Origin: Acinetobacter wanghuae
GTDB lineage: Bacteria; Pseudomonadota; Gammaproteobacteria; Pseudomonadales; Moraxellaceae
Length of the DNA: 32,000 nucleotides
NCBI RefSeq assembly: GCF_009557235.1
Contig: NZ_CP045650.1
Coordinates: 2,130,001-2,162,000, forward strand
Direction: 5' to 3'
The translations under genes and the position numbers were made by a program. Below, piece by piece: positions 20,727 through 32,000 of the stretch; position 1 is the stretch's first letter, and each line of letters opens with the position of its first letter. A model generated the notes under the pieces. It made no database searches, was not told where the DNA came from, and saw only the letters and a list, made by a program, of their open reading frames with translations.

Positions 20727-22271
20727 CTAAATAGACTCAAAGAGCTCTACCCATTTTTTTAGAATACTAGTACTAGAAAAGTTTTGACTCAGTAATTTGG
20801 CTTGTTCGCGAATATGACTCATATTCTGTTGATCATTCAAGTATTGAATAATTTTTTGAGCGTATTGCTCTACATCACCATCTGCAATCAAATAGCCATT
20901 TTGGTTATGTTGAATCATTTCACTTGGTCCATAACGAATATCGAATGAAGTCACAGGACAGCCATTAGCAAGCGCTTCCATGATCACCAAACAAAAGGAT
21001 TCACTCTGACTGGTTAATAACAACATTGAAGCTTCTTGGAGCACTTGATTTACATCCGAAACAAAGGGCTTTAAGAAAATATGATTTTCAAGTTTTTTGT
21101 CTTTAATCATTTTCTTTAAGTTCGAATACTCTAGTCCGAAACCAAATAAATCTAAGGTCGCTTGTGGATGATGCGTAACTACACGTTCAAAAATTGAAAT
21201 GAGTAAATCTAAGCGTTTTACTTTGTCATACCGTGCCAAAGAAACGAATTTATAGGGATCAAATGTAAGATAATAATCATCAGGTCTATGCGCCAATGCA
21301 TGTGGAATCACTTTATAGTTATTATGTGCACCATAAAGTTCTTCAATATCCTTTTTCTGTCGGTGAGTCAAAATGATCAAACCAGATAATTTATCGATAT
21401 GCCTAAAATATGGTGTGTAATTTTTATTCGGTGAACTTTTTATATCATTTGGATTATTATAGTGCGCTGCATGAATTGTACCAAACATGAAGAAATTCGA
21501 AGGAATATTATCCTTCAGTAAAAGATTAAAAACATTTATACGGTCGATCAAGAAAAGATATTTCTTCCGCGGGTCAATACATAATTTTCGCTGAATTGTA
21601 TATTGAGCCAATTCGATCAAACTCTGACAACTTTGGATGACCATCCCGTGTTCATCGAATAAATGTAGATTCTGAATCACACGTTTATCCTTGTTATAGC
21701 CGTAATGAACTTGGATAACGAGTTTGCCATTCACATCAAAAAAACTCTCAGCAATAACTTTTTTTTCATTCAAAATTTGATTTGAACATAGCTTTCCATA
21801 GTCATCGTAACGACTACGACTTACGACTTGTCCATTTTCAAAAAAGTTGATATGAATGAGCTTAGAGGATTTAAATACTTCATAGCGTTTGGTTCTACCC
21901 GATGTATCTTTATATATACGATTATTGATTGAATCAAATTCAACACCATTTTCAACACATGCGGCGATTGAACAAAAATAATCGGATGACTTCTTTTGGT
22001 AATATGAAAAAAGATTAATCAATTCGATATTTTTTGTATTTTTTAATAAACAATCGCTATATAATTTTTCAAAATTTGCACGTGTATTCAAATCGTGTTC
22101 AATGGTTAAAATTTTTATTTTGTAACCATAATTTGCGAGTAACTCTGCTCGACGCAACATTGAAACTACAATACCTGTCTTATTTTCTGATATTTTAGGG
22201 TAAAGCATAAATATTTCTTTATTGCTCATATTCATTATGTATCCATATAGATTTTTATCTAAAAACAACAC
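20727..22271 (-). CDS. GT4 glycosyltransferase of the GtfA/SdgA/SdgB type (O-glycosylation of Ser-rich or Ser-Asp repeat proteins)
   Basis: 514-aa ORF. The track start at 22271 is a GTG that overlaps the upstream stop by 1 nt; ATG starts at 22235 or 22229 are at least as likely.
- The C-terminal GT-B half has the E-x7-E block SESFCLVIMEALANGCPV followed by FDIRYGPSEMIQHNQNGYLI. I remember streptococcal GtfA as ...FDVRYGN..FI.DGKNGYL.
- The mid-region GTIHAAHYNN...NKNYTPYF...LIILTHRQKKDIE resembles GtfA VVVHAEHF...WNNFYDYQ...FIVATEAQK.
- The N-terminal ELINLFSYY resembles GtfA IIWLYNFF.
- The length of about 500 aa suggests an inserted domain between the Rossmann halves.
- There is no signal peptide. 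Confidence 0.75.
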   Translation of the reverse strand: MLFLDKNLYGYIMNMSNKEIFMLYPKISENKTGIVVSMLRRAELLANYGYKIKILTIEHDLNTRANFEKLYSDCLLKNTKNIELINLFSYYQKKSSDYFCSIAACVENGVEFDSINNRIYKDTSGRTKRYEVFKSSKLIHINFFENGQVVSRSRYDDYGKLCSNQILNEKKVIAESFFDVNGKLVIQVHYGYNKDKRVIQNLHLFDEHGMVIQSCQSLIELAQYTIQRKLCIDPRKKYLFLIDRINVFNLLLKDNIPSNFFMFGTIHAAHYNNPNDIKSSPNKNYTPYFRHIDKLSGLIILTHRQKKDIEELYGAHNNYKVIPHALAHRPDDYYLTFDPYKFVSLARYDKVKRLDLLISIFERVVTHHPQATLDLFGFGLEYSNLKKMIKDKKLENHIFLKPFVSDVNQVLQEASMLLLTSQSESFCLVIMEALANGCPVTSFDIRYGPSEMIQHNQNGYLIADGDVEQYAQKIIQYLNDQQNMSHIREQAKLLSQNFSSTSILKKWVELFESI

Positions 22272-23332
22272 TATATCTTGGCAATTTTTTTACGTAAGTT
22301 TTGCGGTAAAAAATTATTCTTATACGGTGGTTGAGCCTTAATTGCTAACCATTCATAATAATCGACCTGCGCACATGCAACGGAATATGCCATAAAGCCA
22401 ACACCAGGCCCAACATTAACCTCGTAAATATAGATATCTCCATCTTGTGTAATCCCAAGGTCCAGCCCAATTGAATCCAATCTCCACGCAAATTGTTTTT
22501 GGAAATTTTGATTAAAATCATCAAATAACTGTCTGATACCTAGATTAATTTTATCCACGCTACTTGGGTAGTATTGCTCTAAAAATAGCTGTTCTCGAGT
22601 GGTGATTAATGCCCCGAGCATACCATTTGTAATATCAATCTCTTTGTTTAGATTCACGTAAGGGAAAAATTTAATGAGCTGCCATTTGCCCTCTTTCCCA
22701 CGTGTAATATGCATTCTAAAAACAGTCGTCTGTCCTAAATGAGTTTCACTTTTTAGAAATGGACTAACTGTATAACCTCTTTTGAGATTTTTTTTTGTAA
22801 ATTCTTCTAATTCACTTAAATTATATTCATGCTGTTCTTGCATTTGTTTTACTATATATACATCAGCATTCTTTTTAATTGTAACAATTCCCTTACCCTG
22901 ATTACTTGCATCGGGTTTACAAATAATCTTGCTATATTTATTTAGGCTATTTTTAATCACTGAAAAATCATTAAGCTCTAAAACCTCGATTAAATACTTC
23001 CTCAACGGTTCAACCTTATTCATAATTTTATAAACCGTTTCCTTCGTACCAATCCGATTATTTGCAAAAGGAATAAGCTCTGCTAACTTTAAGTAGCTTT
23101 CCATATCCTCTTCTTTCACAGCCAAACGATTCTGCACAACATCTGGAAAATCAAAAATCTCTTCAACAACTTTATTATTCCTTAAAGTTTTGCCCTTAAT
23201 TCTCTTATTCTTAAAATCAATATTTTTTGCAATGAATACATAAGCTTCATGTTTTTTTTGCTGAGCAACTGAAATAAAAATTTTCTCTATATCGGTTATC
23301 ACCATATTCGGTTTTAATACACCAAAAATCAT
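22271..23332 (-). CDS. ATP-grasp enzyme, YheC/YheD-like family
   Basis: 353-aa ORF. Motifs are FDFPDVVQNRL (like the YheC/D ...PDV.Y.R), IICKPDASNQGKGI (the P-loop-like ATP-grasp strand), FRMHITRGKEGKWQL, and GLDLGITQDGDIYIYEVNVGPG (the ATP-grasp C-terminal Mg/ATP motif). It has a 4-bp overlap with the upstream gene. No signal peptide. Confidence 0.7.
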   Translation of the reverse strand: MIFGVLKPNMVITDIEKIFISVAQQKKHEAYVFIAKNIDFKNKRIKGKTLRNNKVVEEIFDFPDVVQNRLAVKEEDMESYLKLAELIPFANNRIGTKETVYKIMNKVEPLRKYLIEVLELNDFSVIKNSLNKYSKIICKPDASNQGKGIVTIKKNADVYIVKQMQEQHEYNLSELEEFTKKNLKRGYTVSPFLKSETHLGQTTVFRMHITRGKEGKWQLIKFFPYVNLNKEIDITNGMLGALITTREQLFLEQYYPSSVDKINLGIRQLFDDFNQNFQKQFAWRLDSIGLDLGITQDGDIYIYEVNVGPGVGFMAYSVACAQVDYYEWLAIKAQPPYKNNFLPQNLRKKIAKI

Positions 23333-31900: not shown

Positions 31901-32000
31901 TGTCTGAGTCGGAATCGCTGTCGCTATCAGAATCGGAATCACTGTCGCTGTCTGAGTCAGAGTCGCTGTCGCTGTCAGAATCGCTGTCAGAATCAGAGTC
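25974..32000 (-). CDS. Giant Ser-Asp-repeat, T1SS-type (Bap/RTX-like) surface adhesin; 5' end lies beyond the window (2008 codons visible)
   Basis: The 1005-aa track ORF begins at a GTG (cac, 28989-28991), but the same frame stays open upstream. The preceding codons are atc/aga/gtc/aga/gtc/gct, which read GAT TCT GAC TCT GAC AGC on the minus strand. The phase, with plus-strand codon starts divisible by 3, still reads Asp/Ser at 31980-32000. The C-terminal part has VCBS-like blocks ([14 protein letters not shown]...[11 protein letters not shown]) and a T1SS C-terminal target domain. Confidence 0.85.
25977..26336 (-). other. Type I secretion C-terminal target domain (about the last 120 aa of the adhesin)
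   Basis: [23 protein letters not shown]...[22 protein letters not shown]...[25 protein letters not shown]...[27 protein letters not shown]. The pattern (D.I.DF...GD.LDL..LL ... vd.dG.g ... i.L ... L) matches the T1SS C-terminal target domain of the VCA0849 subclass as I remember it. Confidence 0.7.
27114..28976 (-). repeat. Two tandem, diverged modules of about 300-320 aa within the adhesin, each ending in a VCBS-like block
   Basis: Module 1 (aa 6-326) and module 2 (aa 327-626) align block by block:
- AVDDLDSV / AVDDLYTA
- [24 protein letters not shown] / [24 protein letters not shown]
- [18 protein letters not shown] / [18 protein letters not shown]
- [10 protein letters not shown] / [10 protein letters not shown]
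- [14 protein letters not shown]...[25 protein letters not shown] / [14 protein letters not shown]...[25 protein letters not shown]. Confidence 0.8.
28992..32000 (-). repeat. Uninterrupted Ser-Asp dipeptide repeat tract, at least 1003 codons, truncated by the window edge
   Basis: Only the codons GAC/GAT (Asp) and TCT/TCA/TCC/AGC/AGT (Ser) occur. Strict alternation is mirrored in the shadow ORF 28958-31942, which alternates [T/I] with [L/Q/P/A/V] without exception. Higher-order identical DNA blocks lie inside the tract (see findings). Confidence 0.9.

Follow-up and report, generated by a model that had tools for sequence, protein, structure and literature searches.

A putative substrate-plus-modifier locus for a serine–aspartate-repeat, type I-secreted adhesin in Acinetobacter wanghuae

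We analysed a stretch of 32,000 nucleotides from Acinetobacter wanghuae (contig NZ_CP045650.1, positions 2,130,001 to 2,162,000; hereafter the window), in which a gene for a giant adhesin with a serine–aspartate (SD) repeat stalk is followed on the same strand by a cassette of four genes. These encode a protein that we call U550, an S11-type serine peptidase homologue, a YheC/D-type ATP-grasp ligase and a family 4 glycosyltransferase (GT4; hereafter the GT). Gene content, homology, intact motifs, apparent cytoplasmic location, synteny across phyla and domain fusions make it fairly probable, in our judgement, that the locus is a dedicated module of substrate and modifiers, in which the four cytoplasmic enzymes probably decorate the acidic dipeptide stalk before or during export by the type I secretion system (T1SS). 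In at least two orders of Gammaproteobacteria, close relatives of the GT stand in synteny with SD-stalk T1SS adhesins; U550 shows synteny with Asp-X-repeat adhesins across three classes of bacteria, and fusions join it to the other enzyme types. Synteny and domain fusions are also what ties the ATP-grasp ligase, the S11 homologue and U550 to the adhesin. A first-pass annotation had proposed a substrate-plus-modifier unit at this locus; the identity of the GT and the gene neighbourhoods support the proposal, and modification of the adhesin itself is what we infer.

The adhesin and its stalk

The window contains the 3' part of the adhesin gene (Table 1), the N-terminus and the upstream genes lying beyond its edge; homologous loci hold the BAP N-terminal region, in intact homologues, and adjacent T1SS genes. 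The last 1005 residues match the NF045619 model "BapA/Bap/LapF family large adhesin" (302.3 bits; cutoff 180) and include a VCBS repeat (TIGR01965, 24 bits; cutoff 15.5) as well as the T1SS target domain. The first-pass annotation had described a giant adhesin with at least 1003 residues of (Ser-Asp)n, VCBS-like modules and a T1SS signal, and the open frame together with these model matches bears this out. The equivalog model for ABSDF2314 (NF045618) was not reached by the window adhesin (186.6 bits against a cutoff of 975).

The stalk sequence uses five Ser codons, drawn from both codon boxes, with two Asp codons, and these form nine different hexamers; the self-similarity of the stalk DNA is just 65–73% (periods 18, 24 and 42). 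This variety indicates that the alternation is kept at the protein level and is not due to chance or recent slippage alone. The G+C content (GC) of the stalk is ~52%, against ~40% in the flank.

A 994-residue open reading frame (ORF) at 28958–31942 on the minus strand was rejected as an out-of-frame artefact of the repeat. In an Agrobacterium record (L173; L numbers are our locus labels), an off-frame ORF annotated as a hypothetical protein (MQTQTQ...) at 4779–6659 displaces the true (D[SA])n frame. Dipeptide-repeat adhesins are likely to be under-annotated in public records, as repeat DNA gives long spurious off-frame ORFs.

The glycosyltransferase and its neighbourhoods

The GT matches PF00534 with 119.8 bits, and its top NCBIfam models are SdgA (2e-59) and SdgB (3.6e-54), followed by GtfA (2.4e-34). 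The alignment with the SdgB model places residues 27–510 on positions 9–492 of 496 and spans the uridine diphosphate (UDP)-binding and catalytic motifs. The closest solved structures are SdgB (7EC1/7VFK; 3e-44), TarM (~4e-38) and GtfA/Gtf1 (4PQG; 1.6e-26), and the alignment with TarM is full-length (residues 16–513 on 5–498). Residues R347, K352, E424, H267 and H270, which are UDP-binding and catalytic residues, are invariant in our family alignment (A2). The top models, the related structures and the near-full-length alignments distinguish the protein from a generic polysaccharide GT4, in line with the GtfA/Sdg-type assignment of the first-pass annotation.

Metagenomes were scanned with an alignment of GT relatives, and the presence of an adhesin was no selection criterion. 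All eight loci with a GT at least 33% identical and with enough flank (L087–L093 and L095) have, no more than a few kb away, both an (SD)n ORF and a BAP-type C-terminus. Of two further, shorter metagenomic contigs that could not be scored, one still bears a BAP C-terminus. No SD run was found in the more distant metagenomic GT matches examined, and the 28%-identical relatives with genes listed (2/2) sit among TagF-type teichoic-acid genes. An Sdg-type GT stands beside an SD-repeat surface protein in the window, in L002, L011, L012, L015, L022, L031, L063, L087–L093 and L095, and in Edwardsiella. In Edwardsiella anguillarum and in L089, one operon encodes an SD-rich BapA_N adhesin, a T1SS outer-membrane protein, an ABC transporter, a membrane-fusion protein and the GT.

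The composition of the repeat also bears on the role of the GT. Among loci anchored on U550, which were not selected for the GT, the GT occurs in 8 of 15 SD-type loci versus none of 12 of (Asp-Ala)n (DA) type (Fisher p = 0.003; the loci share ancestry, so that the Fisher p-values overstate independence). This is the pattern expected of a Ser-directed enzyme. The first-pass annotation had raised co-occurrence of the four-gene cassette, or of the GT alone, with SD-repeat ORFs: for the GT this stands, given the eight metagenomic loci and Edwardsiella, whereas the four-gene cassette is not fixed and U550 is not SD-specific. Word-index searches for the GT and the ATP-grasp ligase gave few distant matches, and the wider spread of both families is under-sampled.

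Several arrangements around GT relatives were observed besides these. The adhesin of E. anguillarum, a fish pathogen (L081–L083), has GSDSDSDAEGGA-type repeats, and U550 is absent; judged by its gene content, this operon appears to be a minimal, GT-only version of the system. A. gerneri has two copies of U550 (L007 and L008) on one contig, ~10 kb apart: one follows an SD adhesin and has no partner enzymes, and the other is followed by a GT and PGA_cap, with no adhesin match in the 10-kb flanks. This arrangement indicates that modifiers can be encoded at a distance, and counts of loci with no GT are therefore lower bounds. A protein of ~330–355 residues with no Pfam family, F13, adjoins the Sdg-like GT, mostly just downstream, in L002, L015, L022, L027, L031, L063 and L087–L095. 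F13 shows weak, sub-threshold metallopeptidase-like hints and might be a partner of the GT or a processing enzyme.

U550, the core companion of the adhesins

U550 has no match in Pfam or NCBIfam, and profile searches of the PDB gave no relative up to E = 10, so that "unknown", the label of the first-pass annotation, remains apt. Its AlphaFold2 model (predicted local distance difference test score, pLDDT, 81) combines an N-terminal alpha/beta domain with a C-terminal (alpha/alpha)6 barrel, which in Foldseek comparisons weakly resembles AGE-type epimerases and GH76- and GH88-like enzymes. Many His, Cys, Asp and Glu residues are invariant in the family. None of 78 homologues has a hydrophobic segment, and the family thus appears cytoplasmic in monoderms and diderms. 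U550 carries the name "poly alpha-glucosyltransferase" in public sources, and many of the homologues on staphylococcal plasmids are named "poly(glycerol-phosphate) alpha-glucosyltransferase" by the Prokaryotic Genome Annotation Pipeline; we flag this naming as apparently unsupported, given the predicted (alpha/alpha)6 fold.

An exhaustive HMMER search of a library of 50%-identity representatives gave 1564 U550 relatives, of which the best 150 were inspected. Among these 150, 86 are multidomain proteins, nearly always with U550 at the N-terminus. The partners are Mur ligases (~47 representatives), PGA_cap (~22), GT4 (~18), ATP-grasp (~17), acylphosphatase (7), family 2 glycosyltransferases (4) and S11 (1). 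Each enzyme class of the window cassette is therefore fused to U550 somewhere, which provides Rosetta-stone evidence for a shared pathway.

The neighbourhoods of U550 were surveyed in one genome per GTDB species; 428 homologous stretches were confirmed and the best 80 kept. In Moraxellaceae, a BAP C-terminus lies within 600 bp upstream of U550, on the same strand, in 49 of 63 loci. Five further loci have an opposite-strand adhesin match, downstream and convergent where the order was resolved (L031 and L063). The Moraxellaceae loci fall into beta loci, with (SD)n or (DA)n stalks and mosaic cassettes of S11, ATP-grasp, GT, F13, PGA_cap and others, and alpha loci, with Ig-repeat BAPs, for example in A. 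nosocomialis, A. pittii and A. calcoaceticus, in which U550 is accompanied by PGA_cap in 24 of 24. The ATP-grasp ligase, S11 or the GT occurs in 11 of 20 beta loci versus none of the 24 alpha loci; contigs often end inside repeats, many in Moraxellaceae 2.5–6 kb upstream in the adhesin gene, which limits this classification. U550 is thus the conserved core and is not specific to SD stalks, being found also behind Ig-repeat BAPs and (Asp-Ala)n adhesins.

In Firmicutes, a (D[SA])n run lies within 3 kb upstream of U550, on the same strand, in 14 of 17 loci. The repeat proteins are of (Asp-Ala)n type in Bacillus, Paenibacillus, Pullulanibacillus and Alkalicoccobacillus, and of Sdr type, (SDSDAD)n, in S. 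cohnii, S. pasteuri and Mammaliicoccus sciuri. The complete upstream ORFs end in an LPXTG-type anchor, and the clusters usually contain a sortase and sometimes D-Ala-D-Ala ligase (Ddl), PGA_cap or a GT. On the S. aureus plasmid pN10CSA27, U550 lies behind a YSIRK gene of Sdr type, which is frameshifted and has an SD/AD repeat of 266 residues, and before a Mur-ligase fragment. An Agrobacterium pusense plasmid encodes TolC, a BapA-family adhesin with 616 residues of (D[SA])n, ABC and HlyD proteins and a U550::Mur-ligase fusion, and one further Gram-negative genome combines a (DA)n adhesin and T1SS genes with a U550::ATP-grasp::Mur-ligase fusion.

We also observed the following around U550. In the A. 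calcoaceticus–baumannii complex and relatives (L035, L030, L043, L044 and others), the Ig-repeat bap gene is followed by U550 and then by PGA_cap (CapA-like); this arrangement is not mentioned in PMC4647330 or in the other BAP papers found in our literature search. U550 is directly downstream of bap in A. baumannii VB958 (L172), where the next 1.7-kb stretch is unannotated. A short DADADA/SDSD run lies ~100 residues from the N-terminus in both adhesins inspected (Ig-type L053 and SD-type L018), and such a run could be a common target of U550 in Ig-type BAPs. (Asp-Ala)n replaces (Ser-Asp)n in some Moraxellaceae BAPs (L014 of A. amyesii, L003, L055 and L056). In four SD-type loci (L010, L012, L050 and L059), an alternative downstream block, F24–F27, encodes an unknown protein of 590 residues, a small protein that hints below threshold at a HAD hydrolase (E ~0.005), an IspD-like nucleotidyltransferase and a second unknown protein, of 520 residues. 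F13, F24, F25 and F27 give only sub-threshold Pfam hints; the makeup of the block suggests a nucleotide-activated substituent.

In the Firmicutes, U550 lies directly downstream of LPXTG proteins with hundreds of (Asp-Ala) units in L064, L070, L074, L075, L078 and L080 (Bacillus, Paenibacillus, Pullulanibacillus and others), with a sortase after U550 in four of these six (L064, L070, L074 and L075). The Bacillales loci L066, L069 and L073 add Ddl and PGA_cap. Staphylococcal plasmids with U550 comprise pN10CSA27 (L171), the one whose gene order was inspected, and 15 others, in hosts that include S. aureus, S. epidermidis, S. lugdunensis, S. haemolyticus and S. capitis.

The ATP-grasp ligase and the S11 homologue

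The predicted model of the ATP-grasp ligase (pLDDT 87.6) has an ATP-grasp fold. Its structural neighbours include graspetide ligases of ribosomally synthesized and post-translationally modified peptides (7MGV, PsnB and MdnC), TTL/TTLL6, RimK, Ddl and GshB. All of these neighbours are ligases that activate a carboxylate, which for several of them belongs to a peptide or protein. No sequence match of the enzyme to a solved structure was found, and it has a weak secondary match to the Pfam model "sugar-transfer associated ATP-grasp". In the S11 homologue, the SxxK (STAK), SxN (SSN) and KTG motifs are intact in the translation, and its PDB relatives are DacB, PBP4 and the 262-residue Streptomyces K15 DD-transpeptidase. 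Hydropathy reveals no N-terminal hydrophobic segment in this protein; a classical role in peptidoglycan is unlikely, because a signal peptide is lacking. The family calls of the first-pass annotation for the S11, ATP-grasp and GT4 proteins agree with their matches to PF00768, PF14398 and PF00534.

It is conceivable, though in our estimate unlikely, that the GT alone acts on the adhesin, as a plain Sdg-type enzyme, and that U550, S11 and ATP-grasp have another adhesin-linked role with no covalent decoration of the repeat, for example as chaperones, in quality control ahead of T1SS or Sec export, or in processing the N-terminal retention region. The occurrence of U550 behind Ig-repeat BAPs lacking a long Asp-X stalk, always with PGA_cap, fits this division of labour, as do the minimal Firmicute clusters, which lack a ligase and hold just a (DA)n protein, U550 and a sortase, and the lack of a recognisable catalytic family for U550. 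However, the many invariant His, Cys, Asp and Glu residues of U550 are as expected for an enzyme, U550 is repeatedly fused to amide ligases and glycosyltransferases, and ATP-grasp and S11 are confined to repeat-type loci in the Moraxellaceae set, with none among the 24 Ig-type loci.

Organization of the cassette and its surroundings

The coordinates of the locus are collected in Table 1. The adhesin gene ends before an intrinsic terminator with a folding energy of −23.9 kcal/mol (z = −5.3), a stability that none of 200 shuffled sequences equalled, and an AT-rich spacer of 137 nt separates the terminator from the U550 gene. The cassette genes are spaced by an 11-nt gap, a 4-bp overlap and a 1-nt overlap if the GTG start of the GT is assumed; in the public annotation the GT begins at an ATG 12 codons further on, and the 1-nt overlap then becomes a 35-nt gap. 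Three of the cassette products have public A. wanghuae counterparts that are 100% identical to them. No segment resembling a signal peptide or a transmembrane helix occurs in any of the four proteins, the maximal 19-residue Kyte–Doolittle mean being 1.55. As such segments are absent from these four proteins and from the 78 U550 homologues, their action must precede export. In these respects the first-pass annotation was accurate: the strong terminator after the adhesin, the tight four-gene packing (with the GTG start) and the absence of signal peptides were all recovered.

Table 1. Features of the adhesin–cassette locus in the 32,000-nucleotide window
Feature	Position	Strand	Description
AT-rich spacer	20199..20726	.	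528 bp; ends the low-GC cassette before the OprB porin gene
GT4 glycosyltransferase, SdgA/SdgB–TarM–GtfA clade	20727..22271	-	514 aa from GTG; 502 aa from annotated ATG
YheC/D-type ATP-grasp ligase	22271..23332	-	353 aa; PF14398, 113.7 bits (gathering 26.8)
S11-type serine DD-peptidase/transpeptidase homologue	23329..24129	-	266 aa; PF00768, 67.8 bits (gathering 27.6)
U550	24141..25793	-	550 aa; cytoplasmic-looking; core companion of acidic dipeptide-repeat and BAP adhesins
Intrinsic terminator at adhesin/cassette boundary	25924..25950	-	GC-rich hairpin (~25931-25950), then U-run
BAP-family T1SS adhesin, 3' part	25974..32000	-	2008 codons and TAA stop; no internal stop; open at window edge
T1SS C-terminal target domain	25983..26225	-	TIGR03661, 49.4 bits (cutoff 17.6); residues 923-1003 of the 1005-aa C-terminal region
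(Asp-Ser)n stalk	28992..32000	-	1003 residues; perfect alternation; cut by window edge

Elsewhere the window carries housekeeping genes, namely nuo genes and those for a two-component system, ribonucleotide reductase, a TonB-dependent receptor, PQQ glucose dehydrogenase and OprB. Among the window genes, neither an initiating transferase nor a flippase, a polymerase or an exporter was found; its ORFs include no GtfB, SecA2/SecY2 or Asp1-3, and the window holds no remnant of PGA_cap or an F13 partner. A reading as anti-phage defence was rejected, since none of the four cassette proteins matches a PADLOC model. The GT has a match to PF20706 ("GT4-conflict") below the cutoff (23.4 against 26) that lies under its GT1 hit.

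These surroundings bear on the possibility that the cassette makes or decorates a surface polymer distinct from the adhesin, for instance a peptide-substituted glycopolymer of TupA, teichuronopeptide or poly-gamma-glutamate type, and merely shares a "surface island" with the adhesin. GT4, ATP-grasp, PGA_cap and Mur ligase are classic classes of polymer synthesis, the teichoic-acid enzyme TarM is closely related to the GT, the sugar-transfer match of the ATP-grasp ligase points the same way, and the terminator suggests a separate transcription unit. In contrast, the window lacks the four kinds of polymer-assembly gene sought, its other genes being housekeeping, and all four proteins appear soluble and cytoplasmic; moreover, synteny with Asp-X adhesins extends over Gammaproteobacteria, Alphaproteobacteria and Firmicutes despite different secretion routes, and the presence of the GT tracks Ser in the repeat. 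We therefore hold a separate polymer to be quite improbable.

The cassette has a GC of 31–35%, against ~38–47% in the remainder of the window outside the repeat. Across window 20199–25930, this low GC and the AT-rich 528-bp tail were observed along with Firmicute homologues at 38–43% identity, and such composition and similarity suggest that the cassette was acquired horizontally from a low-GC lineage. The GC difference and the AT-rich spacer after the cassette would also suit a horizontally acquired remnant that has no function in this strain. Nevertheless, all four ORFs are intact and tightly packed with conserved catalytic motifs, and orthologues at 40–73% identity are kept in many Acinetobacter species, so that a functionless remnant seems extremely improbable to us.

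Comparison with known systems

SdgA and SdgB glycosylate the SD-repeat proteins Sdr and Clf of staphylococci (Hazenbos 2013, cited in PMC4647330). The S. aureus system and our locus share the long (Ser-Asp)n substrate type, the GT clade and a cytoplasmic enzyme gene beside the adhesin gene. Unlike the Sdg system, the window comes from a diderm, its adhesin is of the BAP type and exported by T1SS rather than by Sec with sortase and LPXTG anchoring, and U550, ATP-grasp and S11 are added. To our knowledge, none of these three has been described as part of the Sdg system.

The GtfA/GtfB–accessory Sec system of serine-rich-repeat proteins (SRRPs) in streptococci, and of staphylococcal SraP, appears to share the extended GT4 architecture with the GT. 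GtfA and GtfB glycosylate the Ser-rich repeat in the cytoplasm before dedicated export. In contrast to these SRRPs, the repeat in the window is a strict SD dipeptide, export is by T1SS and accessory Sec genes are absent. TarM, a wall-teichoic-acid alpha-N-acetylglucosamine (GlcNAc) transferase, is similar to the GT over its full length and acts on poly(ribitol-phosphate). Unlike the setting of TarM, the window and related loci contain no TagF- or TarL-type genes, and no teichoic acids are known from Acinetobacter.

The analogy with carboxylate ligases concerns the other cassette enzymes. TTL/TTLL, RimK, MdnC and PsnB are among the structural neighbours of the ATP-grasp model, and cyanophycin synthetase combines ATP-grasp with Mur ligase, as do U550 fusions. 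The candidate substrate is rich in Asp carboxylates, yet it is a ribosomally made stalk of ~1000 residues, and the reaction is hypothetical. A Klebsiella preprint (PMC12632600) describes ATP-grasp modification of fimbriae by a different, TupA-like family.

The adhesin class itself was described in 2015 as SD-repeat "beta-type BAP" T1SS adhesins of Acinetobacter, for example ABSDF785 and ABSDF2314 (De Gregorio et al. 2015, PMC4647330). The window adhesin is of the same class, with an SD stalk replacing Ig-like repeats, a BAP C-terminus and a T1SS signal. That paper describes the adhesins only, citing the Sdg work for the function of the stalk, and does not mention downstream modifying genes. 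Our full-text search, outside of which the amidoligase survey of Iyer et al. 2009 lies, found no literature link in any organism between repeat adhesins and an Sdg-like GT, a YheC/D ATP-grasp, a Mur ligase, PGA_cap or the (alpha/alpha)6 family of U550. The first-pass annotation had put forward the whole system as a candidate undescribed one; this holds for the link between such enzymes and the adhesins, and not for the SD-repeat T1SS adhesins, known since 2015. New here would be Sdg-type stalk modification on diderm T1SS adhesins with extra enzyme classes.

Proposed mechanism and its strength

We propose that the SdgB/TarM/GtfA-type GT4 would first transfer a sugar from a UDP-sugar to Ser hydroxyls of (SD)n; by analogy with SdgA and SdgB, the sugar would be GlcNAc. 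U550 may be the hub of a second, wider module that tracks Asp-X dipeptide repeats in general. Together with U550, the ATP-grasp ligase would activate carboxylates, most plausibly the beta-carboxylates of Asp, as acyl-phosphates, and an amine or amino acid would then be ligated, in the manner of TTLL, RimK, graspetide ligases and the cyanophycin M-domain. We hold this Asp-ligation chemistry to be much less probable than the general statement that the locus is a dedicated stalk-modification module. As an acyl-serine enzyme, the signal-less S11 homologue could trim or transfer the added (D-)aminoacyl units, and the presence of Ddl and Mur ligases in sister cassettes is a hint at D-amino acids.

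A broader proposal, which we regard as possible but doubtful, is that U550 marks a modification system shared across phyla, in which amide ligases graft amino acids or (D-)peptides onto the Asp beta-carboxylates of (Asp-Ser)n and (Asp-Ala)n stalks. U550 would recruit ATP-grasp or Mur-type ligases, with or without PGA_cap, Ddl, S11 and GT4, and an Sdg-type GT would be added when the repeat contains Ser. The product would be a protein-borne decoration resembling cyanophycin or polyglutamylation. Such a system would act ahead of T1SS export in Acinetobacter (including A. baumannii bap), Edwardsiella and Agrobacterium, and ahead of Sec/sortase export in Bacillus, Paenibacillus and on staphylococcal plasmids. 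It is realistically possible that the ligase module centred on U550 represents a new category of modification system.

Several points weigh against the substrate-plus-modifier reading of the window, which comparative genomics supports. The GT misses the NCBIfam cutoffs for SdgA and SdgB (201.5 and 184.2 bits against 800), which makes it a relative of these enzymes and not an orthologue, and its margin for SdgB over TarM is modest (155 against 136 bits). For the GtfA/Sdg-type insert domain that the first-pass annotation had brought up, the sequence comparisons point both ways: the GT aligns over nearly its full length with SdgB and TarM, yet DUF1975 (PF09318) was not detected in it even at E = 5. 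The GT is absent within 10 kb of some SD-type loci (L016, L017 and L023), and the window lacks F13, which accompanies this GT in most GT loci.

The organization of the locus adds further points of this kind. A strong terminator divides the adhesin from the cassette, so that co-regulation is an assumption, and a consensus sigma-70 promoter was not found in the 137-nt spacer before the U550 start. The four genes of the cassette are one variant of a mosaic whose gene set is not fixed. Behind Ig-repeat BAPs with no long Asp-X runs, U550 is likewise found together with PGA_cap, and it may therefore have a target other than the dipeptide repeat. In the usual view, the T1SS exports chains that are unfolded and unmodified, and the passage of a decorated chain is an assumption of our reading. 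The shared ancestry of the loci and the contigs ending inside repeats, given above with the counts that they limit, belong here as well.

Significance

If the substrate-plus-modifier reading is correct, the cytoplasmic decoration of repeat stalks, known for the Gram-positive Sdr, Clf and SRRP adhesins, would extend to type I-secreted adhesins of diderm bacteria. A hub protein that has no relative of solved structure, together with an ATP-dependent ligase and an acyl-serine peptidase, would then point to new chemistry on Asp-rich stalks. In A. baumannii and relatives the U550 core lies directly behind bap, and plasmids of S. aureus and of coagulase-negative staphylococci carry it too. Because U550 is found beside these clinically important adhesins, the modification could affect biofilm formation, protease resistance, immunogenicity and the targeting of the adhesins by vaccines or antibodies.

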